From positions 3,239-67,238 of the forward strand of contig CAWJTH010000202.1 in the NCBI GenBank assembly GCA_963845495.1: a DNA stretch of 64,000 nt, in the 5' to 3' direction. This document shows positions 3,495 to 62,911 of this stretch, piece after piece. How positions within the stretch are numbered: the first letter of the stretch is position 1; each line of letters starts with the position of its first letter. The position numbers were made by a program, and so were the translations under genes. The stretch is from an uncultured Chitinophagaceae bacterium (GTDB lineage Bacteria; Bacteroidota; Bacteroidia; Chitinophagales; Chitinophagaceae). The notes below the pieces were generated by a model. It saw only the letters and a list, made by a program, of their open reading frames with translations. It was not told where the DNA came from and ran no database searches.

Positions 3495-3638
3495 TGGTGA
3501 GTGGTGAATAGTGAGTGGTGGGTAGGTTCCTCATTATTTATCTTTATCAACCAATAATAACAACGTAATTAAACCAAAAATTGTAGTGGGATATTGAGTT
3601 AACCGATCTACTCACTATTCACCACTCACCACTCACCA
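3495..3638. repeat. intergenic word hairpin (tcacc/ggtga words) filling the spacer up to the cdsA ATG
   Basis: The G/T arm tggtgagtggtgaatagtgagtggtgggtagg (3495-3526) starts right after the upstream stop codon. The C/A arm ctactcactattcaccactcaccactcacca (3608-3638) ends 2 nt before the cdsA ATG. The arms are complementary apart from one bulge. Confidence 0.8.
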
Positions 3639-5820: not shown

Positions 5821-5849
5821 TTGCCACAGATTTATAGATTAGAAAGAAT

Positions 5850-6090
5850 ATTGCCACAGATTCACAGATAAAGCACAGAAGTAAAAAAAAGGATTATTCG
5901 TTTGATGTCACGGATTTACAGAAAGCACAGAGATAAATTAACAGTGCAAAATCTGTGAATCTGTAGCAATAGTTATCAGCGGGGATTCTGTTTTGGTACC
6001 ACAGATTCACAGATAAAGCACAGAAATATCAAGATTCACAGAAAGCACAGAGATAAATTAACAGTGAAAAATCTGTGAATCTGTGGCAAT
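5850..6090. repeat. two tandem hairpin elements (cacagat words) between convergent psd and yihY
   Basis: Copy A spans about 5850-5970 and copy B about 5997-6090. Each begins ccacagattcacagataaagcacagaa and ends aaatctgtgaatctgt(a/g)gcaat, so the termini are inverted repeats. The internal cacagaaagcacagagataaattaacagtg block is shared. Confidence 0.8.
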
Positions 6091-7444: not shown

Positions 7445-7475
7445 AACAAAAGTTTCAAAAAAACAGTAAAAATAA

Positions 7476-7540
7476 AAATTCCAAATTCCAACCACTCAAA
7501 GCTAATTTTTGCATTTGAATGTTGTTGGAATTTGGAATTT
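7476..7540. repeat. perfect 17-bp stem hairpin (ccaaattcc words)
   Basis: aaattccaaattccaac (7476-7492) and gttggaatttggaattt (7524-7540) are exact reverse complements. They lie between the PfkB stop and the MazG-like start. Confidence 0.85.
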
Positions 7541-7556
7541 CTTTTTGGTATTTGGC

Positions 7557-9566: not shown

Positions 9567-9594
9567 TTTTAGTGTCAATAGTCAATGGTCAATA

Positions 9595-9780
9595 GTGAAA
9601 CGTGAGACGTGAAATGTGAGACGTGAAATGTGAGACGTGAAACGTGAAACGTGAGACGTGAGACGTGAAATGTGAGGCATGAATCGTGAATCGTGAAATG
9701 TGAATCGTGAGGCATGAAACGTAAGTGAGTCGTTGCGGAATTAGTGAACCCGCTCACGACTCACGTCTGACGATTCACGA
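9595..9780. repeat. long tandem gtgaNNc word array plus short complementary arm
   Basis: Positions 9595-9735 are made almost entirely of cgtgagacgtgaaatgtgaga-type units. The opposing arm cgctcacgactcacgtctgacgattcacga (9752-9780) overlaps the stop of the upstream gene. Track ORF 9575-9757 is a translation of this repeat. Confidence 0.8.
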
Positions 9781-10668
9781 TTTTATTTGTCGGGGCATGT
9801 ATTGTCTGTTTGCTTCGCCACGATTTATTGTTTCAATTGCATCTTTAATAATAGCTAAACTGCTTCGCCATTCTGTTTTTGGCGGATTATATTTAGCAAA
9901 TTTTGCAGCATCTGCCAGCCTAATTGTATTGGCAAATTGGTAAAACAATTCATGGTTTAAAATTGGTTTTGCTTGCAAAATCAATTCATCGCCGGTTTGC
10001 TGCAAACTACGCCAGTTGCGGCTTTCGGCTAAATAACGGCGATAAATATCTATAAGTTGTGTAAAAAAAATGGCCGGTTTTTGTGTCGAAATTTTAGTTT
10101 CCAATTCGCTTAATGCCTGCATGGCATTATCAAAAGGGTTGCCCACCGGAACAAATTGTTTTTTTATTTCTTTTGTAATCTTTGTTTTTTTAATGAAACG
10201 ATAGACCCCAACAATTGAAAGAACCGCAATTAAACCAATGCCTAAAATGTAGGGCCATTGCGGCACTGGCGGTACCTCAATAATATCTTTGATGTCGTGG
10301 TAATCTTTTAACGAATCAACGTTTACGGGTTGCACATCAATGATAAACGAATTGGTGTGAACGGTGGCTTTTGCACCCATAATTTTTAATTCGGGAAATA
10401 CAAACTGGCCCGAATCGTAACTGGTAATGGTGATATTTTGTACCAAGGTGTCGCCATTGCGTTGTGGTTGGCTGCGGCTCCAAATGTCAAAATGCGGTAT
10501 GGAATCGGGGATAATAAATGCATCGTTGTTGCTTGGCGCAATGGAAATCAATTGTACGTGGATAGGCTCCGCAGTGCGGATGGAGGACCTATCGGGTGTG
10601 GCGTTTTGCTGTGCGTTGGCAAAGTGAAAAGTAAAAAGTAAAAAGGATAAAGTAAAAAACCGCATCAT
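9775..10668 (-). CDS. hypothetical signal-peptide/TM protein of the MoxR-DUF58-BatA operon
   Basis: Likely start MMRFFTLSFLLFTFHFANAQ at 10668 (a signal peptide). It has a central TM helix (ILGIGLIAVLSIVGVY). Its position between DUF58 and batA matches Bat operons. No family was recognised with certainty. Confidence 0.6.
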   Translation of the reverse strand: MMRFFTLSFLLFTFHFANAQQNATPDRSSIRTAEPIHVQLISIAPSNNDAFIIPDSIPHFDIWSRSQPQRNGDTLVQNITITSYDSGQFVFPELKIMGAKATVHTNSFIIDVQPVNVDSLKDYHDIKDIIEVPPVPQWPYILGIGLIAVLSIVGVYRFIKKTKITKEIKKQFVPVGNPFDNAMQALSELETKISTQKPAIFFTQLIDIYRRYLAESRNWRSLQQTGDELILQAKPILNHELFYQFANTIRLADAAKFAKYNPPKTEWRSSLAIIKDAIETINRGEANRQYMPRQIKS

Positions 10669-12974: not shown

Positions 12975-13090
12975 AAATTAAAAAATAAAAAGTAAAAATT
13001 AAAAAGTACCTACTTGATTAAAAATATTGTGCTATTTCAATTATCCTTTGACATTTGCAATAGGCTTTTAATTTTTACTTTTTAATTTAA
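12975..13090. repeat. inverted aaaagtaaaaatt word arms in a divergent spacer
   Basis: ataaaaagtaaaaattaaaaagta (about 12985-13008) and cttttaatttttactttttaattt (13065-13088) are near-perfect reverse complements, differing by one A-run length. Confidence 0.7.
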
Positions 13091-21336: not shown

Positions 21337-21420
21337 TGAGCTATTAGCTGTTAGCTTTGAGCTATCAAAATAGATAGTTTTATCAAGGCTCAAAGCTCAT
21401 AGCTCACAGCTCAAAGCTCA
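21337..21420. repeat. intergenic word hairpin (agctNNgagct words)
   Basis: gtgagctattagctgttagctttgagctatc (21337-21366) and ggctcaaagctcatagctcacagctcaaagctca (21387-21420) are imperfectly complementary. They occupy most of the HD-lpxD spacer, from 7 nt after the stop to 5 nt before the ATG. Confidence 0.75.
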
Positions 21421-21424
21421 ATTT

Positions 21425-22820: not shown

Positions 22821-25800
22821 ATGGACTACGATTTCAGGAAAATTGAGCAGGCTTGGCAAGAAAAATGGAAGGCAACCCAAGCTTACAAAACCACCAACGA
22901 CACCACAAAACCAAAGTGTTATGTGCTGGATATGTTTCCTTACCCAAGTGGTGCGGGACTGCATGTGGGTCATCCGTTGGGCTACATTTCAAGCGATATT
23001 TATAGCCGATATAAAAGGCTGAAAGGTTTTAACGTGCTGCACCCCATGGGTTATGATGCTTTTGGTTTGCCGGCCGAACAATATGCCATTGAAAAAGGTG
23101 TGCATCCTGCCGTTTCAACCGAAGAAAATATTGCCAATTTCCGCAAGCAGTTAGACAATATTGGCTTCAGCTACGATTGGGACCGTGAAGTTCGTACCAG
23201 CGAAGCCAGCTATTATAAATGGACGCAATGGATTTTTCTGCAATTGTTCCATAGCTTTTTTAATCGTATCGATAACCGGGCCGAACATTTGTCGGTATTG
23301 ATCGAATCGTTTGAAAATGAAGGAAGTTTGGTACATGAGATTCCAAATACGAAATACGAAATACGAGAAACGGGCAAAAACTCTTTTACCGCCGAAGAAT
23401 GGAATGGCTTCGACGAAAAAACCAAACACGATATTTTAATGGAATACCGCCTGGCGTTTTGTGGCTATGGCGAAGTGAATTGGTGCGAAGCACTGGGCAC
23501 CGTTTTGGCCAACGACGAAGTGGTGAACGGCGTAAGCGAACGTGGCGGTTATCCGGTAGAAAAAAAACGCCTCCGCCAATGGTATTTGCGCATTACCGAA
23601 TATGCTGATCGCTTGCTGAAAGGTTTAGAAACCGTTGATTTTAGCGAGGCAATGAAAGAAATGCAAAGCAATTGGATCGGAAAAAGTTATGGGGCGGAAA
23701 TTGAGTTCAACCTCACCCCCGGCCCCTCTCCACAAGTGGCGAGGGGTGCCTCTGTGCAAGTGTCATCACAGTCGGAAAATCCGGGTTCAAAAAATTCAGT
23801 CGTTCCTAAGTATTCAATCGTATCTATTAAGCAGTTCGAGCTAGCAAGAGAAAATAGAAAAGGTCATACAGAGGCAGAAGCAATTTTATGGAAAGAATTA
23901 CGTGGAAATAACTTGGGTGAAAAATTTAGGCGCCAACACCCAATTGATGCCTATATCGTCGATTTTGTTTCTCTTCAAAACAAATTGATAATTGAAATTG
24001 ATGGCGGTTATCATGAAACGGAAGACCAAAAAATTTATGACGATGCCCGTAGCAGTGTGTTAAATCAAATTGGTTTTAAAGTAATCCGATTTACTAACGA
24101 AGAGGTGATCAATCACACAAAAGAAACAATAAAAAGAATAAAAGAAGCACTCGCGGAAGAACAGCAAGAAGCCACAAATATTCACGAACCCGCAATTGGC
24201 AAACAGTCAGCCAGCTTCACAGAGGCACCCCTCGCCACGAGTGGAGAGGGGACGGGGGTGAGGTCTTTAGTCGTTTACACAACCCGCCCCGACACCATTT
24301 TTGGTGTTGATTTTATGGTTATTGCGCCGGAACTGGATTGGATTCCAAGCATTGTTTCGGAAGCACAAAAAGAAGAAGTTGAAAATTATATTGCTTACGT
24401 AAAAAGCCGTAGCGAACGGGAGCGCCAAGCGGAGAAAAAGATAAGTGGTTGTTTTACAGGTGCTTATGCCATCAATCCGTTTAACGGAAAAGAAATTCCG
24501 ATTTGGATAAGCGAATATGTTTTAGCTGGTTATGGCACAGGTGCTATTATGGCCGTGCCTTGCGGCGATGACCGTGATTTTAAGTTTGCGCAGCATTTCA
24601 ATATTCCCATCACTAATATTTTGGGCGATGCGTTTAATGGAAATGAAGCTAATCCAACTAAAGATGCGAAGCTAACTAATAGTGGTTTTTTAGACGGCGT
24701 GGTAATGCGGGATGCCATCCAAATTGTAAATGCCAAGCTGGAAGAAATGGGCATTGGCAAGGCCAAAGTAAATTACCGGATGCGGGATGCGGCGTTTAGC
24801 AGGCAGCGCTATTGGGGCGAGCCATTCCCGATTGTTTGGAAAAACGGTATTGCTTATGCATTGGATGAAAGCGAATTGCCACTGGAACTGCCCAAAGTAG
24901 ATGGTTATGGCCCGGGACCAGATGGCGAAGGTCCGCTAGCAAATATTTTAGAATGGACGGCACAAAACTTGGAAACGAACACCATGCCTGGTTATGCCGG
25001 TTCATCGTGGTACTTTTTAAGGTATATGGATCCGCACAACGACCAAGTTTTTTGCGACCGCAAAGCCAGCGATTATTGGAACCAAGTAGATATTTACATC
25101 GGCGGCACCGAACATGCCGTTGGCCATTTATTGTATAGTCGCTTGTGGACCAAGGTTTTATACGATCTTGGGTTTATTGGTTTTGATGAACCGTTCAAGA
25201 AATTGGTGAACCAAGGGATGATTCAGGGAAGTTCGAGGTTTGTGTATAGAATTGTTGGAACCAATCAGTTTGTTTCCGCCGGCAAAAAAAATGAATACAA
25301 CGTAACCCCTTTGCACGTAGACGTGAATCTTGTTGATGGCTATGAACTTGATATTGAAGCATTTAAAAAATGGAAACCAGAATTTGCCGATGCTGAGTTT
25401 GTATTTGAAGACGGTACTCTTTCTTTTTCTTGCACTATTGGTACCGCAAAAGATATGAAATATATCTGCGGCTCTGAGGTTGAAAAAATGAGTAAAAGGT
25501 ATTACAACACTGTTAATCCTAACGATATATGTGAAAAATACGGTGCTGATACTTTCCGCATGTACGAAATGTTCTTGGGGCCGGTGGAAGCGTCTAAACC
25601 TTGGGAAACCAAAGGCATTGAAGGCGTTCATCGTTTTCTTAAAAAATTGTGGCGCTTATTTTTTACGGATACTACTTTTTCAAATGGAAAAGCAGTGCAA
25701 GGCAAACCAGTTTGGAACGACCAACCCGCTACACCGCAAGAATTGAAAGTGTTGCACAAAACTATCCGCAAAATTGATGATGACACGGAAAAATTCAGTT

Positions 25801-26195
25801 ACAATACAGCCGTAAGCGCTTTTATGGTTTGCGTAAACGAATTAACGGATTTGAAATGCAATAAAAAATCGGTGTTGGAACAATTGCTGGTGTTATTGTC
25901 GCCTTATGCGCCGCATGTAACGGAAGAATTATGGCATCAGTTGGGCAACACAACCAGTATTTTAGATGCAGCTTATCCGGTGTTCGAACAAAAATATGTG
26001 GTGGAGTCGTCCAAAGAATATCCAGTTAGCATCAATGGTAAATTAAGAACCACTATGGATTTTGCCCTTGATGCAATGGAGGCGGATGTAAAAAGCGAAG
26101 TATTGACCAACGAAATTGTGCAAAAATGGTTGGAAGGCAAAGAGCCGAAGAAAATTGTTTTTGTAAAAGGAAAAATGATAAATGTGGTGGTGTAA
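22821..26195 (+). CDS. leuS: leucine--tRNA ligase carrying a 185-codon in-frame insertion
   Basis: 1124 aa. Motifs: HVGHPLGY (HIGH), NWIGKS, TTRPDTIFG (editing-site Thr-rich motif), KMSKRYYN (KMSKS). Residues about 297-482 have no counterpart in LeuRS and form the cassette listed separately. Confidence 0.95.
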   Translation: MDYDFRKIEQAWQEKWKATQAYKTTNDTTKPKCYVLDMFPYPSGAGLHVGHPLGYISSDIYSRYKRLKGFNVLHPMGYDAFGLPAEQYAIEKGVHPAVSTEENIANFRKQLDNIGFSYDWDREVRTSEASYYKWTQWIFLQLFHSFFNRIDNRAEHLSVLIESFENEGSLVHEIPNTKYEIRETGKNSFTAEEWNGFDEKTKHDILMEYRLAFCGYGEVNWCEALGTVLANDEVVNGVSERGGYPVEKKRLRQWYLRITEYADRLLKGLETVDFSEAMKEMQSNWIGKSYGAEIEFNLTPGPSPQVARGASVQVSSQSENPGSKNSVVPKYSIVSIKQFELARENRKGHTEAEAILWKELRGNNLGEKFRRQHPIDAYIVDFVSLQNKLIIEIDGGYHETEDQKIYDDARSSVLNQIGFKVIRFTNEEVINHTKETIKRIKEALAEEQQEATNIHEPAIGKQSASFTEAPLATSGEGTGVRSLVVYTTRPDTIFGVDFMVIAPELDWIPSIVSEAQKEEVENYIAYVKSRSERERQAEKKISGCFTGAYAINPFNGKEIPIWISEYVLAGYGTGAIMAVPCGDDRDFKFAQHFNIPITNILGDAFNGNEANPTKDAKLTNSGFLDGVVMRDAIQIVNAKLEEMGIGKAKVNYRMRDAAFSRQRYWGEPFPIVWKNGIAYALDESELPLELPKVDGYGPGPDGEGPLANILEWTAQNLETNTMPGYAGSSWYFLRYMDPHNDQVFCDRKASDYWNQVDIYIGGTEHAVGHLLYSRLWTKVLYDLGFIGFDEPFKKLVNQGMIQGSSRFVYRIVGTNQFVSAGKKNEYNVTPLHVDVNLVDGYELDIEAFKKWKPEFADAEFVFEDGTLSFSCTIGTAKDMKYICGSEVEKMSKRYYNTVNPNDICEKYGADTFRMYEMFLGPVEASKPWETKGIEGVHRFLKKLWRLFFTDTTFSNGKAVQGKPVWNDQPATPQELKVLHKTIRKIDDDTEKFSYNTAVSAFMVCVNELTDLKCNKKSVLEQLLVLLSPYAPHVTEELWHQLGNTTSILDAAYPVFEQKYVVESSKEYPVSINGKLRTTMDFALDAMEADVKSEVLTNEIVQKWLEGKEPKKIVFVKGKMINVVV
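23710..24264 (+). mobile_element. 555-bp in-frame cassette: DUF559 (Vsr-like) endonuclease domain flanked by hairpin-forming terminal inverted repeats
   Basis: Left arm acctcacccccggcccctctccacaagtggcgaggggtgcctctg (23710-23754). Right arm cagaggcacccctcgccacgagtggagaggggacgggggtgaggt (24220-24264) is its reverse complement with 3 differences. The core encodes ARENRKGHTEAEAILWKELRGNNLGEKFRRQHPIDAYIVDFVSLQNKLIIEIDGGYHETEDQKIYDDARSSVLNQIGFKVIRFTNEEV, a DUF559 signature. There is no stop and no ATG codon inside. Confidence 0.8.
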
Positions 26196-30510: not shown

Positions 30511-30574
30511 TATTAATAATCTGACGAATTCTACATTTTGAACATACTCACGACTGACGATTCACGCCTCATGA

Positions 30575-32382
30575 TTATGCCATTGCACCAACTGATTTAG
30601 ATTCCCTTTTGCGGGTTTCTTCATCCAAGTTGTTTTTGCGTAGGCGGATTGCTTTAGGCGTTACTTCGATGCACTCATCACCTTGGATATACTCCATACA
30701 TTCTTCCAAAGTCATTTGGATTTTAGGCGTAATGCGAACGCTATCATCGCTACCGCTTGCACGGTGGTTAGTTAGTTTTTTAGGTTCAGTAGCATTTACT
30801 ACCAAATCGCCTGGTTTAATATGTTCGGCTATAATTTGGCCGGTGTAAACTTCTTCACCAGGTTCAATAAAGAAAGAACCGCGGTCTTGTAATTTATCGA
30901 TTGAATATGCAGTTGTGGTTGCGCCATTCTTGGAGATTAACACACCGTTGCTACGGCCAGGAATTGGGCCTTTCCAAGGTTTGTATTCGTTAAAACGGTG
31001 CGCCATTACAGCTTCGCCGGCAGTGTTGGTAAGCATTTGCGAACGCATACCAATCAATCCACGTGAAGGGATTTCAAATTCCAGATGTTGCATTTCGCCT
31101 TTGCTTTCCATTACCAACATTTCGCCTTTGCGTTGCGTAGCAAGGTCAATAGCTTTTCCGCTGAATTCGGCAGGAACATCGATTACCAATGTTTCATAAG
31201 GCTCGCATTTTTTACCGTCGATTACTTTTATAATAACCTGCGGTTGGCCAACGGTCAATTCAAAACCTTCGCGACGCATGGTTTCAACCAAAACGCCCAG
31301 GTGCAAAATACCACGTCCAAATACCAAGAAGCTATCAGCGCTATCCGTATCTTCAACACGCATAGCTAGGTTCTTTTCAGTTTCCTTCATCAAACGGTCA
31401 CGCAAGTGGCGGCTGGTAACAAACTTACCTTCCTTACCAAAAAATGGTGAGTTGTTGATGCTGAACAGCATATTCATGGTTGGTTCATCAACGTGTGTAA
31501 TTGGCAAAGCTTCAGGATTTTCAAAATCGGCAATGGTATCGCCAATATCAAAACCTTCCAATCCAACAACAGCGCAAATATCACCGCCAAAACTTCGGTA
31601 GCTTTCTTTTTGCCCATACCCTCAAAAGTATATAGTTCTTTTATTTTGATCCTTTTTATTTTGCCGTCGGCCTGCATCAAAGCAACTGTTTGGCCTTCTT
31701 TAATTGAACCGCGGGTAATCCTTCCCACGGCAATACGGCCAAGGAAAGAAGAATAGTCCAAAGAGGTAATTTGCAATTGCAAGTTTCCTTCAGGCACCAC
31801 ATATTCAGGCACGTATTTCAAAATACCATCCATTAACGGAGTAATATCTTCGGAAGGCGTTAGGCTATCGTTAAACCAACCGTTTTTGCCGCTACCATAA
31901 AAAGTGGGGAAATTTAATTGTTCCTCGGTAGCATCCAAGTTGAAGAACAATTCAAAAACCGCGTCGTGTACTTCATCGGGGCGGCAGTTCGGCTTGTCTA
32001 CTTTATTGATGATTACGATTGGTTTTAAGTTCAATTGCAAAGCTTTTTGCAACACAAAACGGGTTTGTGGCATTGGTCCTTCAAAAGCATCTACCAACAA
32101 TAAAACGCCGTCGGCCATTTTCAAAACCCTTTCTACCTCGCCGCCAAAGTCACTGTGACCTGGGGTATCTATTACATTGATTTTGAAGCCTTTATATTCA
32201 ACCGAAATATTTTTGCTGAGAATGGTAATACCACGTTCCCTTTCAAGATCGTTGTTGTCCATAATCAACTCACCGGTTTCCTGGTTGTCACGAAATACCT
32301 TCGTGGCATGTAAAATTTTATCTACCAATGTTGTTTTGCCATGGTCAACGTGAGCGATAATGGCGATGTTGCGAATATTCAT
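30575..32382 (-). pseudogene. typA: translational GTPase TypA/BipA interrupted by an apparent 1-nt deletion (or a sequencing error)
   Basis: Track ORF 31474-32382 holds the GTPase domain (AHVDHGKTT, DTPGH, NKVD). ORF 30575-31561 holds the C-terminal domains. Re-reading around 31580-31600 gives ...KKKATEVLA then, one frame over, GDICAVVGLEGFDIGDTIADFENP. The total of 1808 nt equals 3n-1. Confidence 0.88.
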
Positions 32383-36140: not shown

Positions 36141-39100
36141 TTATCCTTCCAATTCCATCTTCAAAAACCTTGCGGTATGACTTACTTTATTGTTAATCAT
36201 TTCTTCCGGCGTTCCTTCAAATAAAATTTCGCCGCCACCATCGCCGCCTTCCAAGCCAAGGTCAATAATATGATCAGCAACTTTTATCACATCCATATTG
36301 TGTTCAATAACCAAAACAGAATTGCCGCGATCAACCAACTTATTTACCACTTCTAATAAATGTTGGATGTCCTGAAAATGTAATCCTGTTGTTGGTTCGT
36401 CTAAAATATAAAACGTTTTGCCGGTGTCTTTTTTACCTAATTCTGTACTCAATTTCACACGCTGTGCTTCGCCACCACTAAGTGTCACGGAACTTTGGCC
36501 AAGGGTAATGTAGCCCAAACCAACATCTTGCAGCACCTTTATTTTTCTGTACATCCAAGGTATGGCCTGAAAAAATTCCACGGCATCGTCCACCGTCATG
36601 TCCAACACATCGCTGATGCTTTTGCCTTTGTAGCGTATTTCCAGCGTTTCGCGGTTGTAGCGTTTGCCTTGGCATTTTTCGCACGGCACGTAAACATCAG
36701 GCAAAAAATTCATTTCAATTACCCGCATGCCGCCGCCTTCGCATACATCGCAACGGCCGCCTTTTACGTTAAAAGAAAAACGGCCAGGCAAATAACCCCT
36801 AATTTTTGCTTCAGGAACGGAAGCGAATAATTGCCTTATCTCTGTAAAAAATCCACAATAAGTAGCTGGATTACTGCGTGGTGTGCGGCCAATCGGGCTT
36901 TGGTCAATCTCAATTACTTTATCAATAAAATCCAAGCCTTTGATGCGCTTGTAAGGCATTGCCACCATTTTGCTAGCCAAAAAACTATGGCGACTTAAAA
37001 TGGGATAAAGTGTTTCGTTTATTAATGTTGACTTGCCGCTGCCGCTTACGCCAGTTACCACAATCAATTGCCCTAAAGGAAATTTTACCGAAACATTTTT
37101 AAGCGTATTTCCCGTGGCACCTTGCAATTCTAAAAATTTGCCATTGCCTTTGCGGCGTTCTTTGGGTATTTCAATTTTCTTTTCGCCATTTAAATATTGG
37201 GCGGTTTCACTATGCGTAGCCAACACTTCGGCGGGTGTTCCCATGGCTACAATATTGCCGCCATGGCGGCCGGCTTTGGGGCCGATATCCACCAAAAAAT
37301 CAGACGCCATCATGATGTCTTTGTCGTGTTCCACCACTAAAACACTATTGCCGATGTCGCGTAAATGGCGCAACGCATCAATCAACCGCTGGTTGTCGCG
37401 TTGGTGCAAACCAATGGAAGGTTCATCTAAAATATAGGTGATGCCCTGCAGTTGTGAACCAATTTGTGTAGCCAAGCGAATCCGCTGGCTTTCGCCACCA
37501 CTCAGTGTTTTAGAAGAACGGTCGATGGTGAGATAATTCAACCCAACATCCAACAAAAATTGTAGGCGTTCCCTAATTTCCTTCAATACATCTTTCGAAA
37601 TCAGTAATTGTTTTTTGCTGATACGATCCTCGATGCCATCGAACCAACGCATTAGTTTATCAAGGTTTAGGTGGCTGAGTTCCGCAATATTTTTTCCATC
37701 TACCATAAAATAAAGGCTTTCTTTTTTAAGCCTTGCGCCTTGGCACGATGGGCAAGTTTGCAAAGACATAAAACCCTCAGCCCAATCGCGGATGGCATCG
37801 CTGTTGCTGCCATTGAACCAGCGTTTTACCATATTTATCACACCCTCAAACTCGTCAGTCGTGAATCGTGAGTCGTGAGTTGGGCCGCTGCTATCTGGTG
37901 AATTGCTTACCACTGACGCCTCACCACTTACCAAATCCCCCATCATTTCCAAATCATTTTCATCCGGCGTTTCTTTACCGTAAAAAATAATATTTTTTTG
38001 CGCTTCCGTTAATTCGCTAATTGGTTTTGAAAGGTTGAATTTATTTTTTCTAGCCAATGCTTCTACTTGCTTAAAAATCCAAGCTTCGCGTTTTTCGCCC
38101 AGCGGCGCAATGCCACCGTCGTTTATGCTAACAGATGGATCGGGGATAACCGACGCCATATCAATTTGGTAAACTGTTCCTAAGCCTTTACAAACTGGGC
38201 AAGCACCATAAGGGCTGTTAAATGAAAACGAATTGGGCGAAGGCTCGTCGTAACTGATGCCGGTGTCTTCGCACATTAAGGCTTTGGAATATTGAACCAG
38301 CAAAGACGACGGACGATTGACGACGGACGACTTGCCACCCGTGGTCTTTCGTCCGTCGTCAATCGTCGGTTCTACCTGGATCTGCATGATATCCTTTCCC
38401 AACTTTAACGCTTGTTGCACGCTCTGGCTTAAGCGCAGCTTCATATCTGGCGTTGCGGGCAGGCGGTCAACCACCAATTCAATGTCGTGAATTTTATATC
38501 GGTCGACCTGCATTTTAGGCACCAAGTCTTTAATTTCACCATCAATCCGCACTTTTAAATAACCTTTTTTGCGTAGGTCTTCAAATAGTTCGCGGTAGTG
38601 GCCTTTTCTGCCCCTAATTATAGGTGCTAAAATGGATAATTTGCCATTTGCAAAGCGGCTGAAAATATTTTCGACGATTTCTTCTTCGCTCCATTTTACC
38701 ATTTTTTTACCTGTATTGTAACTTATGGCATCGCTGCCACGAGCGTACAACAAACGCATAAAATCGTAAATTTCGGTGATGGTGCCAACGGTGCTACGCG
38801 GATTTTTATTGGTGGTTTTTTGTTCGATGGAAATAACAGGCGAAAGGCCGGTTATTTTATCTACATCGGGCCGTTCCATATCGCCCATAAATTGGCGGGC
38901 ATAAGCGCTGAAGCTTTCCATGTAGCGGCGCTGGCCTTCGTTGTAAATGGTATCGAAAGCCAAAGATGATTTACCGCTTCCGCTAACACCTGTAAAAACC
39001 ACCAGTTTATTTTTGGGTATGGAAATGTCGATGTTTTTGAGGTTGTGTTCGCGGGCACCAAAAACTTCGATCACCTCACCCTCCGGCTCCCTCTCCACAA

Positions 39101-39182
39101 GTGGCGAGGGAGTGCCCCTATTTGAGCTTTGATTAATTTTTTTGGGCTTTACCGTTGTTTTTTCAATTGTTTCCTTTGCCAT
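36141..39182 (-). CDS. uvrA: excinuclease ABC subunit A with three repeat-derived in-frame extensions or insertions
   Basis: 1013 aa. Motifs: GAREHNLKNI, two ABC modules (GVSGSGKSS twice, LSGGE twice), zinc modules CPVCKGLG, CPSCQG, CDVCEGGG, CEKCQG. The extra segments coincide with repeat DNA, listed separately. Confidence 0.95.
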   Translation of the reverse strand: MAKETIEKTTVKPKKINQSSNRGTPSPLVEREPEGEVIEVFGAREHNLKNIDISIPKNKLVVFTGVSGSGKSSLAFDTIYNEGQRRYMESFSAYARQFMGDMERPDVDKITGLSPVISIEQKTTNKNPRSTVGTITEIYDFMRLLYARGSDAISYNTGKKMVKWSEEEIVENIFSRFANGKLSILAPIIRGRKGHYRELFEDLRKKGYLKVRIDGEIKDLVPKMQVDRYKIHDIELVVDRLPATPDMKLRLSQSVQQALKLGKDIMQIQVEPTIDDGRKTTGGKSSVVNRPSSLLVQYSKALMCEDTGISYDEPSPNSFSFNSPYGACPVCKGLGTVYQIDMASVIPDPSVSINDGGIAPLGEKREAWIFKQVEALARKNKFNLSKPISELTEAQKNIIFYGKETPDENDLEMMGDLVSGEASVVSNSPDSSGPTHDSRFTTDEFEGVINMVKRWFNGSNSDAIRDWAEGFMSLQTCPSCQGARLKKESLYFMVDGKNIAELSHLNLDKLMRWFDGIEDRISKKQLLISKDVLKEIRERLQFLLDVGLNYLTIDRSSKTLSGGESQRIRLATQIGSQLQGITYILDEPSIGLHQRDNQRLIDALRHLRDIGNSVLVVEHDKDIMMASDFLVDIGPKAGRHGGNIVAMGTPAEVLATHSETAQYLNGEKKIEIPKERRKGNGKFLELQGATGNTLKNVSVKFPLGQLIVVTGVSGSGKSTLINETLYPILSRHSFLASKMVAMPYKRIKGLDFIDKVIEIDQSPIGRTPRSNPATYCGFFTEIRQLFASVPEAKIRGYLPGRFSFNVKGGRCDVCEGGGMRVIEMNFLPDVYVPCEKCQGKRYNRETLEIRYKGKSISDVLDMTVDDAVEFFQAIPWMYRKIKVLQDVGLGYITLGQSSVTLSGGEAQRVKLSTELGKKDTGKTFYILDEPTTGLHFQDIQHLLEVVNKLVDRGNSVLVIEHNMDVIKVADHIIDLGLEGGDGGGEILFEGTPEEMINNKVSHTARFLKMELEG
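37856..37932. repeat. word-repeat pair inside the uvrA coding sequence
   Basis: G/T arm cagtcgtgaatcgtgagtcgtgagttgg (37856-37883) and C/A arm gcttaccactgacgcctcaccacttacc (37905-37932) use the same tcacg/tcacc words as the intergenic hairpins. Complementarity is imperfect. They encode ...SGEASVVSNSPDSSGPTHDSRFTTDE just before the conserved FEGVI block. Confidence 0.65.
38312..38367. repeat. perfect 19-bp stem hairpin inside the uvrA coding sequence
   Basis: gacgattgacgacggacga (38312-38330) and tcgtccgtcgtcaatcgtc (38349-38367) are exact reverse complements with an 18-nt loop. The hairpin is translated in frame as IDDGRKTTGGKSSVVNRP. Confidence 0.85.
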
Positions 39183-39399
39183 ATTTGTTTCTTGCGGAAT
39201 ATCGAAAATACAAACAAGTAGTGGAAGGAAAGGTTTTATGCGAAAAAAATTAGTTTTTCTTGATTAAGATGGCATCATGTTATTTAAAATTCATTTATAG
39301 AGCGATTTAAAAAAGCAAACGGAAACCTTAAATGAAATAAATGAGCCTTTATAGGGGCACTCCCTCGCCACTTGTGGAGAGGGAGCCGGAGGGTGAGGT
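39073..39399. mobile_element. 327-bp nuclease-less member of the leuS-cassette repeat family, spanning the uvrA start
   Basis: acctcaccctccggctccctctccacaagtggcgagggagtgcccctat (39073-39121) and ataggggcactccctcgccacttgtggagagggagccggagggtgaggt (39351-39399) are perfect 49-bp reverse complements, about 85 percent similar by eye to the leuS cassette arms. The 229-bp AT-rich core contains the uvrA ATG at 39182. Confidence 0.8.
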
Positions 39400-44389: not shown

Positions 44390-45373
44390 ATGATCCTCAT
44401 TACCGGCGGTACCGGCTTACTTGGCCAACAACTAATTGCACATTTGCACCAAAAAGGCATTCAAGACATTGTTGCTCCATACCGAAGTTCAATTCCCATT
44501 GGTTTTGAACAAAAAGCCCGTTGGGTAAAAGGCGATATTTTGGATGTTATTTTTTTGGAAGAAATAATGCGAGGCATTACGGAAGTATATCATTGCGCTG
44601 GTTATGTTTCTTTTAGCCCAAAACATAAGGCAGAATTATATCAAGTAAATGTTGATGGAACCGCAAATGTAGTAAATGCTAGTTTGGATGCCGGCGTACG
44701 AAAACTGGTACATGTAAGCAGCGTAGCGGCATTGGGCCGCTACCACCAAGGCAAGGTTATTTCCGAAAAAATGGAATGGACCGAAAAATCGAATAATAGC
44801 GAATACGGCAAAACAAAATACTTGGGCGAGATGGAAGTGTGGCGTGGCATTGGCGAAGGGTTGGATGCGGTCATCGTAAACCCAACTATTATTATAAGCC
44901 AATATGGCGATTGGACAAAAGGCTCGATGGCCATTTTCAAAAATATTTACAATGGTTTTCCTTGGTATAGCACGGGCAGTGCAGGCTTTGTAAGTGCATT
45001 AGATGTTGCCGAAGCCATGTACCAATTAATGCAAAGCGATATTTCTGCGCAGCGTTTTATTGTAAACGCCGAAAACAAAACATTTAAAGATTTATTTTTT
45101 ATGATTGCCGATGCCTTTGGCAAAAAAAGACCATCAAAAGCCGTAACGCCTTTTTTAGCGGCCATTGTTTGGCGAGTAGAGAAAATAAAAAGTTTCTTCA
45201 CCAAAAAAGATCCGATGGTAACAAAAGAAACGGCGGATTCGGCTCTGTCAACCGTGCAATTTGACAATACGGCCTTGCTGAAAGCCTTGCCCAGCTTTAC
45301 TTACACGCCCATACAAAAAAGCGTGGAAGAAATTTGCAAGCAATTGAAAGCGAAAACCGTGAATAGTGAATAG
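44390..45373 (+). CDS. NAD-dependent epimerase/dehydratase family (extended SDR)
   Basis: 327 aa. It has the Rossmann motif ILITGGTGLLG and a YGKTK catalytic YxxxK. Confidence 0.85.
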   Translation: MILITGGTGLLGQQLIAHLHQKGIQDIVAPYRSSIPIGFEQKARWVKGDILDVIFLEEIMRGITEVYHCAGYVSFSPKHKAELYQVNVDGTANVVNASLDAGVRKLVHVSSVAALGRYHQGKVISEKMEWTEKSNNSEYGKTKYLGEMEVWRGIGEGLDAVIVNPTIIISQYGDWTKGSMAIFKNIYNGFPWYSTGSAGFVSALDVAEAMYQLMQSDISAQRFIVNAENKTFKDLFFMIADAFGKKRPSKAVTPFLAAIVWRVEKIKSFFTKKDPMVTKETADSALSTVQFDNTALLKALPSFTYTPIQKSVEEICKQLKAKTVNSE

Positions 45374-45506
45374 TGAGTGGTGAATAAGTTTCAGATAGTA
45401 ATTATTTCCTGATAATTACAAGAATTAAAAACAAAAAAATTAATCAGTTACAGGGAAAGCTCAAATTTAGTGAGCCAACTCACGACTGACCACTCACGAT
45501 TCACGC
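45359..45506. repeat. word hairpin between convergent genes, with arms overlapping both gene ends
   Basis: gtgaatagtgaatagtgagtggtgaata (45359-45386) supplies the last codons (VNSE, stop) of the SDR gene. ctcacgactgaccactcacgattcacgc (45479-45506) overlaps the stop and last codon of lpxD-2. Confidence 0.75.
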
Positions 45507-46448
45507 TTCCATTACCTTTTTCCAAAGCTCCGGAATGCGTTTTATCCAAACCAATTCTTTGCGTTTTATGCCAGCTTCTTCGGCCGGAAAGCCCATATAA
45601 ACCTTGCCGCCTTCGATGCTTTTGGTTACTGCGGTTTGGCCCATAATTACAGCATTGTCGCCAATGCTCAATGTTTTATTTACACCAACTTGTCCCCAAA
45701 TAGTTACACCGTCGCCCACGGTTGTGGCACCTGCAATGCCCACTTGCGAAGCAATAATGCAGTTGCGGCCAATCACCACATCGTGGCCCAACTGGATTAA
45801 ATTATCCAGCTTCGTTCCCTGCATAATCCTGGTGTCGTTTGTTACGCCTTTGTCGATGCAACAATTGGCACCAATTTCCACATCGTCTTCAATTACCACG
45901 CGGCCGCAACTGGCCATTTTTTTATACCAATTCTCCCGGTTTTTTTTGGTGTTGTAATAAAAAGCATCGGCCCCAATTACAGTACCAGCATGTATTGTAA
46001 CGTTATTGCCAATTACACAATCGCTGTAAATGGTAACGTTTGGATGAATGACACAACCATTGCCAATCACTACATTTTCGCCAATAAATGCATTGGGCGC
46101 AATATGTGTTCCATGGCCGATAATGGCTGTTTCTGCCAGCATTTTTGTAGCTGGTTTTAACGGTCTAAAATGTTGCACAATTTTTAAATAACCTTCAAAC
46201 GGTTGTTCCATGAAAAGCAAGGTTTTGCCTGGCGGAACGGTAACATCTTTTGAATTAATAATGATGAATTTGGCAGGGCTGTTCAAGCAAGTTCCATAAT
46301 ATTTTGGGTGATCCACAAATACCATATCATTATGCTGCACTTTATGTATTTCGTTGATGCCCGGAACCGGTGCATTGGCATCACCAATTATTTCTGCCCC
46401 AATTAATTGCGCAATCGTGCTGGCTGTTGTGCCTTCAGGAAAAATCAT
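45501..46448 (-). CDS. lpxD: UDP-3-O-acylglucosamine N-acyltransferase, second paralog
   Basis: 315 aa. It has the LpxD-type N-terminal domain followed by hexapeptide repeats, and is shorter than the copy at 21425. Confidence 0.8.
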   Translation of the reverse strand: MIFPEGTTASTIAQLIGAEIIGDANAPVPGINEIHKVQHNDMVFVDHPKYYGTCLNSPAKFIIINSKDVTVPPGKTLLFMEQPFEGYLKIVQHFRPLKPATKMLAETAIIGHGTHIAPNAFIGENVVIGNGCVIHPNVTIYSDCVIGNNVTIHAGTVIGADAFYYNTKKNRENWYKKMASCGRVVIEDDVEIGANCCIDKGVTNDTRIMQGTKLDNLIQLGHDVVIGRNCIIASQVGIAGATTVGDGVTIWGQVGVNKTLSIGDNAVIMGQTAVTKSIEGGKVYMGFPAEEAGIKRKELVWIKRIPELWKKVMEA

Positions 46449-46550
46449 CTGTTCAATTTTTTACAAATGTAGCGCAAGCGGCAATTTGGCCATTAAGTCA
46501 TTTGGTCATCAAAGCATTGAAAATTTATTCAATAGGCCAATTGGATTGTT

Positions 46551-46677
46551 TTATTTCTCGTCCTTTTATTTCTTGTCCTTGTTTTCTTGCCCTTCTGGTT
46601 CTTGTTTTCTTGCCTCCTTGCCTCCTTGTTTCTTGTCTCCTTGTTTTCTTGCCTTCTTGTAGCCTCGTCCTCTTGTC
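46551..46677. repeat. about 125-nt strand-asymmetric C/T/G tract, almost free of A on the plus strand
   Basis: It is built from cttg(t/c) words. The 16-mer t(c/t)cttgttttcttgcc occurs three times. Track ORFs 46354-46772 are translations of this tract. Confidence 0.8.
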
Positions 46678-46725
46678 TCTTTATTCCTATATTTTCAATA
46701 TTTATTGAAAATATAGGAATAAAGA
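46678..46725. repeat. perfect 23-bp inverted repeat with a 2-nt spacer
   Basis: tctttattcctatattttcaata tt tattgaaaatataggaataaaga, 30 nt upstream of the ATG at 46756. Confidence 0.9.
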
Positions 46726-46755: not shown

Positions 46756-47514
46756 ATGAACCGCCATTTTGATAAAGCATTATTGTACGACGATAATTGT
46801 CCGCTTTGCGTAGCATATACCAGTGCCTTCGTAAAAACAGGAATGTTGGACGCCGATAAAAGGATTTCATTTTCACAAATAAATACTGCCGATTATGCCA
46901 TTGATTATAATAAAGCAAGGCACGAAATACCGCTGGTTGATTTTAAAAATGGCGAGATAAAATATGGTGTTGATGCCTTGGCAGAAATTTTAAACCAGCG
47001 GTTTTGTTTTGTAAAACCGATACTAAAAATCGGTTTCATTAATTTGTTTTTTAGAAAATTATATCGCGTCATTTCTTACAACCGAAAAATAATTGTGGCA
47101 AAACCAAGTACCCCAAAAACATGCTTCGATTGTTCGCCGGATTATAGTGTTCGGCACCGTTTTTATCTTGCTCTTTTCACTTGGCTATCTACCAATTTTT
47201 TACTGGCAAATGCAGTGGCAGAAAGCTTACAAAAAGTATCAGCAGGGTTTAAGCCGTGGTGGTTTTTTTGCTGGATGTTGGTTGCTATTTCAATGATGAT
47301 AAACAAAACAAAAAAACAAGCATTGGATATTGCTGTGCATACAGGTATAATTATGATGGTTGCAACAATTATTTATGCGTTGTTATTGCAATTTTTTTCA
47401 ATTGTTATTCACATTTCACTTAATTTTTTATTTAGTGATTTTATTACCTTCTTTGCTTTGGATGATGTGGCAAACAAAGCGCCGCATTACTTTTCACCGC
47501 CAACAACATGCTAG
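46756..47514 (+). CDS. thiol-disulfide oxidoreductase DCC family (DUF393) with a membrane C-terminal half
   Basis: 252 aa. The N-terminal LYDDNCPLC motif is the DCC-family CxxC. The C-terminal half is hydrophobic. Confidence 0.7.
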   Translation: MNRHFDKALLYDDNCPLCVAYTSAFVKTGMLDADKRISFSQINTADYAIDYNKARHEIPLVDFKNGEIKYGVDALAEILNQRFCFVKPILKIGFINLFFRKLYRVISYNRKIIVAKPSTPKTCFDCSPDYSVRHRFYLALFTWLSTNFLLANAVAESLQKVSAGFKPWWFFCWMLVAISMMINKTKKQALDIAVHTGIIMMVATIIYALLLQFFSIVIHISLNFLFSDFITFFALDDVANKAPHYFSPPTTC

Positions 47515-61098: not shown

Positions 61099-61156
61099 GT
61101 TGTAAATGAACGATTCGCTTGCAATATTATTTTAAAGAAGCTATAAAATATTGTGT

Positions 61157-61275
61157 CTCGCAGAAAACGGAGAAAACGCAGAAATAAATTTTAAAAAGCA
61201 TTTAAATTAACTTTAAATGCTTTTTAAATTAAAAAATAAAATTCTTTATTCTGCGTTTTCTCCGTTTTCTGCGAG
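61157..61275. repeat. nested perfect hairpins (27-bp outer stem, 14-bp inner stem)
   Basis: ctcgcagaaaacggagaaaacgcagaa (61157-61183) is the exact reverse complement of ttctgcgttttctccgttttctgcgag (61249-61275). The inner stem is aaaaagcatttaaa ttaac tttaaatgcttttt (61194-61226). Confidence 0.9.
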
Positions 61276-61280
61276 CCATA

Positions 61281-61994
61281 TTATTTCTGATTTATCGGTG
61301 TTTCAATAATTAAAAAATGCGATAAATTATTGCAATGAATAACAACATTTTCCGTGTTCCAAATTCCTATTCCATCTTTTGCATTTAATTCATTTTCATT
61401 CACCGAAATTCCGCCTTCCATTACATAAATAAACAGGCATTTATTGGTATTTTTAAAAGCATAATTAATATCGCTTCCTGCATCAAAATATCCTAGTGAT
61501 AATTTTGCATTTTGATTGACCCAGCAATGCTCCAAGCCTTCTTCGCCCGAAATAATAGTTTGTAATTTATTTTTTCTTTTAGCCTTTGGAAAACTACGCA
61601 TTTGGTAACGAGGCGTAATATTTTGCAATTTTGGTTGGATCCAAATCTGTAAAAAGTTTACTTCGTCTTCGCCAATATTGTATTCTTCGTGCAGCAAACC
61701 CTTGCCAGCACTCATTATTTGCACCCCGCCTTCGCTAACGGTGGTGCTATACCCCATCGAATCTTTATGGTTCATAGTGCCTTGCAGCATGATGGAAATA
61801 ATTTCCATGTTTACGTGTGGATGAATACCAAAGCCTTTTCCTTGTTCCAATAAATCATCATTAAAAGCAACCAAAGTGCCAAAAGCAGATTTTGTTGGAT
61901 CGTAATAATCACTGAAACTAAAACAGAATTTACTTTTTAACCAACCAATATCTTTTGTGCCCCTTTCGCCAGCGGGAAATAATTTTGTTTGCAT
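61281..61994 (-). CDS. pirin family protein
   Basis: 237 aa. It has a bicupin with GFGIHPHVNMEIISIMLQG (pirin metal-binding His pair). Confidence 0.88.
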   Translation of the reverse strand: MQTKLFPAGERGTKDIGWLKSKFCFSFSDYYDPTKSAFGTLVAFNDDLLEQGKGFGIHPHVNMEIISIMLQGTMNHKDSMGYSTTVSEGGVQIMSAGKGLLHEEYNIGEDEVNFLQIWIQPKLQNITPRYQMRSFPKAKRKNKLQTIISGEEGLEHCWVNQNAKLSLGYFDAGSDINYAFKNTNKCLFIYVMEGGISVNENELNAKDGIGIWNTENVVIHCNNLSHFLIIETPINQK

Positions 61995-62076
61995 AAAATA
62001 GTACTTTAGTATTTAGATGTTAGTATTTAGACTCGGAAAAACTAACGACTAAACGATTACATAGTTTTATTTTTTT

Positions 62077-62284
62077 GAACCACAAAGGCTCGAAGTAAAA
62101 GAAGAAGCACGAAGGAAATAAGGAATAATAAATACAAAATAAAGAATAAAAAAATGCAATGCTAGTTAGAAAAAATACTTATAAAAATCATTACTTCTTT
62201 TTTTATTACTAATCAGCAGAATCACATAAATCATAGTTCAGACAACCTTTGTGCTTCTTCTTTTCCTTTGTGTCTTCGTGGTTC
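62077..62284. repeat. imperfect 39-bp inverted arms (cacgaag/cacaaagg words) around an AT-rich loop
   Basis: The arms are gaaccacaaaggctcgaagtaaaagaagaagcacgaagg (62077-62115) and cctttgtgcttcttcttttcctttgtgtcttcgtggttc (62246-62284). Confidence 0.75.
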
Positions 62285-62293
62285 AATTTTTTC

Positions 62294-62911
62294 TCATTTA
62301 AATACCAACTCATTTGCTAAATCAATTTCATCTTTAATAATAGTGTGGCCCATATTGTTATAAATTTTTTCGGTTACAATTGCGTTCATATTTTTTAATA
62401 TTTCGGCACTTGCTTTTACCCGCTCAACCGGAATGTGGGCATCTGGATTACTTGAGCCAACAAAAATAGGTGTGCCGTTAAAATCGCCGTTGTAGTTTTC
62501 CATATAAATTTTATCGCCAATTAACCCGCCGGAAAAAGCTGCTACGCCACCCCATTTTTTTGCATTGCGGGTTACAAATTCAAGCGATAAACATGCCCCC
62601 TGTGAAAAACCTGTGAAGTAAATACTTTCTGTTGAAATGCCTTGTTTCATAATGTCATCCACCAATTCATTTGTTAAATCCAATGCTGAGGAAAGCCACG
62701 GTTCATTTTGCTTCGGCGGTGCCAAAAATGAATACGGATACCAAGAGTAACCAGTTGCCTGTGGCGCAAACAAGGCAAAATCCTTAACATTCAAATGATT
62801 GGCCAATGACAAAATATCTTCCGCATTTGCACCGCGGCCATGCAGCATAATTAACGCTTTTGTTGCGTCGCCTAGTTTTTTTCCAGCCGTTATTATATTT
62901 TTCTTGTGCAT
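62294..62911 (-). CDS. alpha/beta hydrolase, phospholipase/carboxylesterase family (MhqD-like)
   Basis: Likely start MHKKNIITAGKK. It has the nucleophile elbow GFSQGA and a C-terminal H in GHTI. Confidence 0.8.
   Translation of the reverse strand: MHKKNIITAGKKLGDATKALIMLHGRGANAEDILSLANHLNVKDFALFAPQATGYSWYPYSFLAPPKQNEPWLSSALDLTNELVDDIMKQGISTESIYFTGFSQGACLSLEFVTRNAKKWGGVAAFSGGLIGDKIYMENYNGDFNGTPIFVGSSNPDAHIPVERVKASAEILKNMNAIVTEKIYNNMGHTIIKDEIDLANELVFK

Follow-up and report, generated by a model that had tools for sequence, protein, structure and literature searches.

A heptamer-repeat hairpin translated in frame within the uvrA gene of an uncultured Chitinophagaceae bacterium

Mrazek et al. 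reportedly wrote in 2007 of "long simple sequence repeats" in bacterial DNA. Heptamer tandem repeats are over-represented in some bacteria, among them cyanobacteria, Beggiatoaceae, some Bacteroidetes and Xanthomonas (PMC4679880, PMC4692102); repeats of TAACTGA occur in Beggiatoaceae, cyanobacteria and Bacteroidetes (PMC4679880), and the GGGAATC repeats of Xanthomonas include 70–75 loci at which two convergent arrays make potential stem-loops (PMC4692102). Rickettsia palindromic elements (RPEs; Ogata et al. 2000, 2002) are 100–150 bp long and form consensus families with many copies per genome (PMC10969869). Repetitive extragenic palindromic (REP) sequences and REPINs, which are mobilised by RAYT proteins and tagged with GTAG or CGTC, are short palindromes of 20–40 nucleotides that are mostly intergenic and sometimes coding; they have stems (of 8–9 bp in the CGTC families), 4–5-nucleotide loops, an unpaired conserved tetranucleotide head, a high copy number and a family consensus (PMC3733652, PMC3116915). 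Template switching can create and homogenise hairpin arms, also in coding DNA (PMC8794818, PMC8604942), and hairworm mitochondria carry perfect inverted repeats of up to 284 bp within translated genes (PMC6649704). The locus described here is a hairpin with heptamer arms that is translated in frame inside uvrA, in a 64,000-nucleotide stretch of DNA from an uncultured Chitinophagaceae bacterium (GenBank assembly GCA_963845495.1, contig CAWJTH010000202.1, positions 3,239 to 67,238 of the forward strand; this whole stretch is called the window below). Its best explanation is that it belongs to the same class as the repeats in the intergenic spacers of the window, and is tolerated by the gene rather than being a working part of the gene or its protein.

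A previous reading of the letters alone, made without database searches (the sequence-only reading), had described two exact 19-nucleotide (nt) reverse complements lying 18 nt apart within the uvrA open reading frame (ORF), and a check of the sequence agrees. On the forward strand the perfect arms are GACGATTGACGACGGACGA (38312–38330) and TCGTCCGTCGTCAATCGTC (38349–38367) with an 18-nt spacer between them, and the stem lengthens to 22 nt at 95% complementarity (38309–38330 with 38349–38370), giving a hairpin of 62 nt overall (Table 1 lists the features). The gene is identified as uvrA by its closest homologues, which are Chitinophagaceae proteins of 73–89% identity, and by matches to solved UvrA structures at an E-value of 0. 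The hairpin is read in frame as the peptide IDDGRKTTGGKSSVVNRP, for which residues of about 272–291 had been proposed; the location is right and the exact range is 274–291 (codons 38310–38363), with FSFNSPYGACPVCKGLG downstream of it as had also been claimed.

Both arms are built of seven-nucleotide units. The forward-strand run that contains arm 1 (38302–38329) reads AAGACGA CGGACGA TTGACGA CGGACGA, and the coding strand reads GACGATT GACGACG GACGAAA, then the loop, then TCGTCCG TCGTCAA TCGTCCG TCGTCTT. Tandem Repeats Finder gives a period of 7 and 3.9 copies for 38305–38331, and the match of the arm to itself is 0.73 at lag 7 as against 0–0.06 at lags 5, 6, 8 and 9. One variant unit (ATT in one arm, AAT in the other) is mirrored across the hairpin, which argues for arms that are copies of one another rather than separately formed arrays. 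By chance, 64 kb should contain 5 × 10−5 perfect stems at least 19 nt long with a loop of 3–100 nt. Among 3000 synonymous recodings of the hairpin peptide at uvrA codon usage, the best stems had a mean length of 5.7 nt and a maximum of 13 nt, so the complementarity belongs to the DNA itself and does not follow from the peptide it encodes. The calculated folding energy is −27.8 kcal/mol as DNA (z = −4.9) and −41 kcal/mol as RNA (z = −4.5), and none of 200 shuffled sequences folded as well. No intrinsic terminator was found at the hairpin on either strand, its G+C-rich stem having no terminator-like T run, and no promoter was found there; across the whole window Rfam 15 gave no match at the gathering score, and near the hairpin it gave only sub-threshold generic hairpin models.

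The translated hairpin had been proposed to be an insertion, and alignment with orthologues bears this out relative both to solved UvrA structures and to the basal state of the family. The window protein has about 20 residues more than PDB 9gxk at this position (called site 1 below), and in a comparison with the 120 closest UvrA proteins the segment between GK and YS, which in its basal form has 15 residues (e.g., DLMQIFNHDANQLVQ, a tight turn), has 34 in the window, a net gain of 19 amino acids (aa); across the family the basal state of site 1 is a 4-residue turn. A surface loop had been expected here. AlphaFold2 returns predicted local distance difference test (pLDDT) values below 50 for residues 275–291, between strands at 265–270 and 294–299, and thus predicts that the insert forms a disordered loop at a beta-hairpin tip directly after the UvrB-binding domain. 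In the zinc module that follows (UvrA 298–331, at 38271–38291 and downstream), three cysteines, C304, C328 and C331, are kept in the window protein and in all 39 aligned Chitinophagaceae relatives, and the C-x2-C of solved UvrA proteins (FACTEC) is replaced by LMCEDT in the window protein and these 39 relatives.

Period 7 stands out among the repeats of the window. There are 21 period-7 arrays in these 64 kb, the part of the genome on which the excess was measured, compared with 0–2 at each lag of 3–6 and 8–12 and about none in shuffled sequence. Eleven hairpins were found, with stems of 16–63 nt at 79–100% complementarity and loops of 11–96 nt; the arms have period 7 in seven of them (uvrA included), period 8 in two, period 9 in one and no clear period in one. 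Each has its own word and its own loop, the nnGTGAr family of words being the commonest. Ten of the eleven are intergenic, between tandem, convergent or divergent genes, and the uvrA hairpin is the sole exception; arrays are about 17 times denser in the non-coding than in the coding DNA of the window. The uvrA repeat does therefore share the architecture of the intergenic hairpins, as the sequence-only reading had it, in that the arms are iterated words with period 7 in most cases, and "heptamer-armed hairpins" is the sharper term for them. Convergent period-7 pairs are also present in the relatives L007, L049, L051, L059 and L079.

Further repeats in frame had been anticipated, and they exist: in the window at a second place in uvrA (site 2) and in leuS, and in metagenomes as the same word in metH, glyS, aroA and other genes (below). 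Site 2 is a variable linker of the insertion domain that AlphaFold2 predicts to be disordered, and its word family, which is the dominant one in the window, is that of the intergenic arrays at 9595–9782 and 30548–30576. As a candidate decayed hairpin it was rejected; the sequence upstream is weakly heptamer-periodic and resembles the complementary word, but the RNA fold has z = +0.3 relative to shuffles, and we keep the reading of site 2 as an in-frame one-armed array. The word of the leuS array, AAATACG, has no stop codon in any of the six frames.

Comparison with relatives shows how the uvrA loop takes up extra DNA. Site-1 inserts of 1–44 aa are present in 49 of the 120 close UvrA proteins and in 43 of 74 Chitinophagaceae reference-genome loci, and since these frequent inserts are unrelated in sequence and mostly non-palindromic, site 1 is a general hotspot of insertion and deletion (indels) and not a specific landing site for hairpins. 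Orthologues with unrelated, non-palindromic DNA at this position, which the sequence-only reading had regarded as counting against it, are thus found in part. On a neighbour-joining UvrA tree the presence of a site-1 insert is patchy, with sister taxa that have and lack one. The DNA of site 1 folds with z ≤ −3.5 only in the window and in the relatives L048, L031 and L006; the idea that all site-1 inserts are decayed palindromes was discarded, as the z values left after removal of these four strongly structured inserts equal those of control coding segments from the same genes (Mann–Whitney p = 0.43). Between the window and its three nearest relatives (78–81% nt identity) every indel in uvrA lies in the N-terminal tail, at site 1 or at site 2, and AlphaFold2 predicts disorder in all three regions. 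Since indels are restricted to these three regions, uvrA acts as a sieve in which only such loops keep extra DNA.

The hairpin itself is absent from the nearest relatives (84–90% aa identity), which carry other inserts, and the nearest match among 185,579 species-representative genomes has 68% aa identity. The closest relative in DNA, L081 (81% nt identity), has at site 1 a one-armed array, AAAACTG AAAGCTG AAAGCTC AAAACTT, whose word is also intergenic in the window (21381–21424), so sister lineages hold different heptamer inserts at the same loop. Because the nearest uvrA is only 81% identical in DNA, no empty site 1 was obtained at nucleotide resolution. Inserts of 100–150 nt occupy the same loop in L082:2041–2199, L083:1657–1782, L006 and L031 (~4507–4680) and L048:1971–2087; they consist of two C/G-rich mini-palindromes flanking an A+T-rich spacer and are translated into peptides like SPNPSKGGAL...KKHGS...PPLEGREA. 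We considered these five inserts as heptamer hairpins and rejected that interpretation, as none has a clean period 7. Those of L082, L083 and L006 and of the proteins P0012 and P0020 are mutually alignable, yet patchy on the UvrA tree, which implies that this one site either gained an insert several times or lost it precisely several times. The L048 insert is a copy of a GGAGAGGGG..GGGGGTGAGG element that is also found at the ends of a cassette in leuS (below); together with the heptamers, repeat DNA of at least two or three types is thus found in the same loops of UvrA.

The word of the uvrA arms recurs in many unrelated organisms. A scan of Joint Genome Institute (JGI) metagenomes for GACGACGGACGA, a gap of 8–38 nt and TCGTCCGTCGTC matched at least 120 contigs. 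Among the matches listed, the contigs are mostly of 55–72% G+C, with four below 50%; the arms are heptamer arrays with perfect stems of 12–62 nt (median 14) and loops of 0–38 nt; the loops and flanks of different hairpins are mutually unrelated; and beyond the matched hairpins there are 126 more period-7 arrays as against 1–21 at other periods. These further arrays have many differing words and frequently form inverted pairs. One contig of only 36.5% G+C (L193) has the same G+C-rich word between genes. Pfam scans of the spanning reading frames place the same-word hairpin in frame in at least eight conserved genes (Table 1), and the peptides so encoded are cyclic permutations of DDGRRTT and RRPSSVV, like that of the window. 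The MetH hairpin lies between two B12-binding domains, where homologues from several phyla align with a gap of about 26 residues; a protein search with the MetH fragment of contig L153 gave hits across many phyla at about 70% identity, relative to which the segment is an insertion, and that search yielded neither a close relative lacking the insert nor a taxon. A protein search with the idealised hairpin peptide returned only 35 short hypothetical ORFs, and does not amount to a census of host proteins.

The metagenome contigs also show how such hairpins change. Contigs with shared flanks, that is, orthologous loci, make up 14 groups. Seven of these were aligned: conservation of the flanks is about 90% or higher, and the number and order of units and the loops vary, except in one group whose members are identical over their whole length. 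Conserved flanks with turnover of units are the behaviour of a simple-sequence repeat and not that of a transposed unit, and the gain and loss of units in orthologous hairpins argue for evolution in place in a permissive loop, and against both a transposed element and a functional structure.

From these results we consider it quite probable that the uvrA hairpin is a member of the heptamer-repeat class carried as a passenger in a permissive loop. The fuller account, a heptamer-repeat palindrome made by slippage and template switching and passed through the filter of coding DNA, is one we favour with less assurance, and for the proposed origin of the hairpin, taken by itself, we would put the chances at about even. 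In outline, arrays would arise, grow and shrink by replication slippage in 7-nt steps; template switching, or fold-back copying of arm 1, would make arm 2 and keep it complementary; and such events would occur throughout the genome, with selection purging them from coding DNA unless the added length is a multiple of three, contains no in-frame stop and falls in a permissive loop. On this view the peptide (cyclic DDGR[R/K]TT ... [R/N]RPSSVV) would be nothing but the GACGACG word in translation. The mirrored variant unit fits a template-switch origin, although it is not proof of one.

The words themselves bear on the filter. GACGACG is free of stop codons in all six frames, including the one used on each arm, while the dominant words of the window, GTGArnn, contain TGA on one strand and would place it in frame on one arm; in the in-frame array of L081 there is a G-to-C change exactly where the in-frame TGA would fall. 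These features and the 17-fold higher density of arrays in non-coding DNA are consistent with a reading-frame filter. The sequence-only reading had suggested that such elements can land in coding DNA and persist there if the frame stays open; what stands of this is the persistence, for which the stop-free GACGACG and the L081 substitution speak, and what lacks support is the landing. Against the mobility that the word implies stand the lack of a second copy and of a target-site duplication in the window, hairpin sequences that are each unique and the turnover of units in orthologues.

Several points weigh against this slippage and template-switching account. The best available relative is 81% identical in DNA and shows neither an empty site nor a one-armed precursor, so that slippage and template switching are inferred rather than observed. 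Most site-1 inserts have no hairpin signal, which means that the loop collects indels of several origins. Heptamer classes that are open in all six frames number 592 of 1172, about half, and the same G+C-rich word is also intergenic in the 36.5% G+C contig, so the filter is only weakly selective. At 60% G+C the arms are richer than the genome as a whole (about 40%), a composition unusual for DNA of local origin, but the L193 hairpin is a parallel. Finally, the account does not explain the 7-nt step, and so regular a step in different phyla may speak for a mechanism of its own. A bolder form of this last thought, which we hold only tentatively and regard as rather doubtful, is that heptamer-armed hairpins are a distinct, cross-phylum class of self-renewing palindromes whose mechanism works in 7-nt steps and seeds DNA both between and inside essential genes. 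If true, they would be a recurrent source of stereotyped disordered inserts (cyclic DDGRRTT ... RRPSSVV) in the UvrA, MetH, GlyS and AroA proteins of unrelated bacteria, and a bacterium-wide counterpart of the Rickettsia palindromic elements, minus the transposable consensus.

Could the hairpin instead be a small non-autonomous mobile element, similar to a miniature inverted-repeat transposable element (MITE), a REP or an RPE, that a transposase or nuclease put into uvrA, with the heptamer arms as the binding sites of the enzyme? RPEs, REPs and some MITEs are known to insert in frame (PMC10969869, PMC3733652); this genome holds a plausibly mobile palindromic element in frame, namely the leuS cassette described below with copies of its end element in the N-terminal tail of UvrA and at site 1 of L048; and both the patchy presence of site-1 inserts among close relatives and the occurrence of the same word in many unrelated organisms would suit such an element. 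On the other hand, the 12-nt word GACGACGGACGA has no other copy in the 64-kb window at up to one mismatch, and no direct repeat borders the arms (the flanks were read by eye and the repeat list for 38000–38700 consulted). Word and loop differ in every hairpin of the window, the loops of same-word metagenome hairpins are unrelated, and orthologous hairpins differ by turnover of units. Pfam scans of six window proteins gave no match to a transposase family, a result for these six and not a survey of the window genes, and viral contigs gave no match to a hairpin with this word. A mobile element is the main rival, though we regard it as rather unlikely.

A selected function is considerably less probable. 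As a structure in the mRNA the hairpin might make translation pause after the UvrB-binding domain and before the zinc module; it might be a processing or attenuation site; or its peptide might tune the UvrA–UvrB contact. The very stable RNA stem, its position at a domain boundary and the structured inserts at the same site in L048, L031, L006, L082 and L083 could be read in this way. It is, however, missing from relatives with 84–90% aa identity, it has no terminator-like tail and belongs to no Rfam family, and its peptide is predicted to be disordered. Function is unlikely above all because the site shows no family-wide conservation of sequence or structure, its basal state being a 4-residue turn, and because finding the same word in unrelated proteins argues against a UvrA-specific role. 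An assembly artefact, or a palindrome formed by chance in an old loop of low complexity, which the hypervariable, low-complexity loops of many relatives, the metagenome-type contig and a second assembly of the same strain that breaks at repeats might suggest, can be dismissed as having negligible probability given the chance and resampling statistics above, an intact reading frame with both flanks aligning to orthologues, and an architecture shared with ten other loci of the window and at least 120 elsewhere.

The leuS cassette deserves description in its own right. The leuS gene (22821..26195, forward strand, 1124 aa) encodes in frame, at residues 339–444, after the catalytic N-terminal part and ahead of the editing domain, a DUF559 / REase_MTES_1575 domain, which has a Vsr-like endonuclease fold. 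The 555-nt cassette (23710–24264) is in frame, and its ends, 23710–23756 and 24218–24264, are 47-nt inverted copies with 94% identity; the end element is a G/C-rich hairpin plus tail (CACAGAGGCACCCCTCGCCACnnGTGGAGAGGGGnCGGGGGTGAGGT), and the flanking copies encode LTPGPSPQVARGAS and APLATSGEGTGVRS. The insert has the look of an endonuclease cassette, flanked by inverted ends, that entered an essential gene in frame. Among 1.84 billion representative proteins, an internal DUF559 also turned up in several other LeuRS clusters, in another class I aminoacyl-tRNA synthetase and in PheRS beta. The same family of end elements is present near the start of uvrA as a perfect 49-nt inverted repeat (39073–39121 and 39351–39399) that brackets the native, conserved uvrA promoter, the 5' leader and the first 20 codons. 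Its proximal arm is translated as UvrA residues 21–37 (NRGTPSPLVEREPEGEV), and L081 and L082 have degenerate sequence that aligns with this arm. Its distal arm begins 2 nt past the stop codon of the gene upstream, which encodes a LytTR response regulator; the repeat may be a recent local inverted copy. L205, an independent assembly of the same strain from sequencing run ERR11523676, ends in this 49-nt repeat.

Other repeats were seen in passing. Overlapping tandem repeats of 8, 15, 23 and 31 nt lie at 46549–46725, with TTCTTGTC present about ten times at 46599–46678, and a perfect palindrome of 23 + 23 nt with a 2-nt centre (46678–46725) is just upstream of an ORF at 46756..47514. Downstream of uvrA, long heptamer arrays adjoin inverted arrays in L051:6644–6994 (a Sediminibacterium metagenome-assembled genome), L059:6669–6798, L007:6707–6850 and L079:8774–8928; such an array in other Chitinophagaceae has, for example, about 38 copies of (GTGAACC) followed by TTCACGA/CTCACGT units, and the GTGAr family is common across genera. 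A near-identical strain (L204, Logan run ERR11523676) matches window positions 61830–64000 over 2171 nt at 99.95%, with three heptamer arrays unchanged in length. An independent assembly of the uvrA hairpin was not obtained from ERR11523676, where short contigs end at repeats before uvrA is reached.

Table 1. Features of the uvrA locus, of the other repeat loci in the window, and of genes with the same word in metagenome contigs (window coordinates).
Feature	Position	Strand	Details
uvrA coding sequence	36141..39182	-	1013 aa; Pfam UvrB-interaction domain 166-270, DNA-binding (insertion) domain 341-406
Lineage-specific insert	38304..38369	-	codons 272-293 (PTIDDGRKTTGGKSSVVNRPSS), 66 nt; nearly all palindrome
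Hairpin arm 1	38309..38330		perfect core 38312-38330; within a four-unit 7-nt run
Hairpin loop	38331..38348		18 nt, CTTGCCACCCGTGGTCTT; small internal stem CCAC/GTGG
Hairpin arm 2	38349..38370		perfect core 38349-38367; units TCGTCCG TCGTCAA TCGTCGG mirror arm 1 including the variant
uvrA site 2, in-frame heptamer array	37851..37883	-	coding strand ACTCACG ACTCACG ATTCACG ACTGACG; peptide PTHDSRFTTDE
leuS in-frame heptamer array	23336-23378	+	(AAATACG)3 plus a degenerate unit; PNTKYEIRE, residues ~172-186; without inverted partner
Intergenic hairpin	3495..3631		period-7 arms (TGGTGAG-type), stem 22 nt 100%, loop 93 nt
Two adjoining intergenic hairpins	5849..6086		period-8 arms (CACAGATT)
Intergenic hairpin	7470..7546		period-7 arms (AAATTCC), stem 26 nt 88%, loop 25 nt
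Intergenic heptamer array with inverted partner	9571..9782		~18 units (GTGAAAC / AATCGTG), stem 30 nt 87%, loop 41 nt
Hairpin between divergent genes	12982..13088		period-7 arms, stem 23 nt 96%, loop 61 nt
Intergenic hairpin	21337..21420		period-7 arms (AGCTxxx / GCTCAAA), stem 27 nt 85%, loop 30 nt; word is that of the L081 site-1 insert
Hairpin between convergent genes	45355..45508		period-7 arms (GTGAATA / CTCACGA), stem 29 nt 79%, loop 96 nt
Intergenic hairpin	61146..61286		period-9 arms (GCAGAAAAC), stem 38 nt 92%, loop 65 nt
In-frame host genes	metagenome contigs		metH, glyS (glycyl-tRNA synthetase beta subunit), aroA (EPSP synthase), hydantoinase B
In-frame host genes, continued	metagenome contigs		DUF512 protein, FAD-linked oxidase, peptidase M19, B12-binding radical-SAM protein

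The uvrA case joins two known phenomena, the puzzling excess of tandem 7-nt arrays seen in some bacteria and the in-frame insertion of palindromes in conserved proteins. If heptamer hairpins regularly enter coding DNA, they would be a cheap way for essential proteins to gain new surface loops and markers of positions that tolerate insertion; they would also be a practical nuisance, as assemblies break at them and gene callers translate them into short "hypothetical proteins". The uvrA loop, where sister lineages hold repeat-derived inserts of at least three kinds, offers a natural experiment in the way proteins accommodate such DNA. The 7-nt step is found in Chitinophagaceae and in unrelated G+C-rich organisms, and the in-frame cases offer a new handle on its mechanism, since selection for an open frame reveals the repeat words and the combinations of arms that can persist.

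How does this hairpin compare with the systems described above? Template-switch inverted repeats resemble it in their perfect arms, short spacer, mirrored variants, coding location and multi-residue changes (PMC8794818, PMC8604942). Usual template switching, however, perfects an imperfect repeat or copies adjacent sequence, whereas in uvrA no precursor can be seen and each arm is itself a tandem repeat. In the hairworm repeats, too, both arms are coding, but theirs encode conserved parts of proteins and the uvrA arms a dispensable disordered insert. The likeness to RPEs lies in palindromic DNA that is in frame in unrelated housekeeping genes at fold-compatible positions and encodes a peptide without evident function. 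The uvrA hairpin is an in-frame insertion of this fold-compatible kind, but at 62–66 nt it is shorter than the RPEs, is built of 7-nt repeats and, within the 64-kb window, is a single copy rather than one of a dispersed consensus family. With REPs it has in common that it is a short palindrome and that the CGTC tetranucleotide occurs in its arms; it differs in being a single locus with a 19–22-nt stem and an 18-nt loop, and in having CGTC inside the stem and not in an unpaired head. Its arms are inverted repeats as in MITEs, but they have no bordering direct repeat and no further copy in the window.

The heptanucleotide repeats, known in cyanobacteria as short tandemly repeated repetitive (STRR) sequences, or more widely as long simple sequence repeats, come closest. 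They share with the repeats of the window the tandem 7-nt units, the excess of that period, the mostly intergenic location and the many words per genome, and the Xanthomonas GGGAATC pairs, as convergent inverted arrays, have the same build as the window hairpins. In the papers compared, such heptamer repeats are treated as non-coding features, some of their words as G-quadruplex formers or regulator-binding sites. In the literature compared we found no perfect two-armed heptamer hairpin translated in a conserved housekeeping gene and no in-frame recurrence of one word across genes, and the papers on heptamer repeats do not describe the class in Chitinophagaceae. Relative to this literature, we rate as new the two-armed in-frame heptamer hairpin and the recurrence of one word in genes of unrelated organisms, heptamer repeats and in-frame palindromes being already known. 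The uvrA hairpin fails as an RPE, REP or MITE on consensus, copy number, unpaired head and target duplication; it has the defining features of the heptamer repeats, that is, three or more tandem 7-nt units, a period-7 excess in the surrounding 64 kb and convergent inverted pairs.

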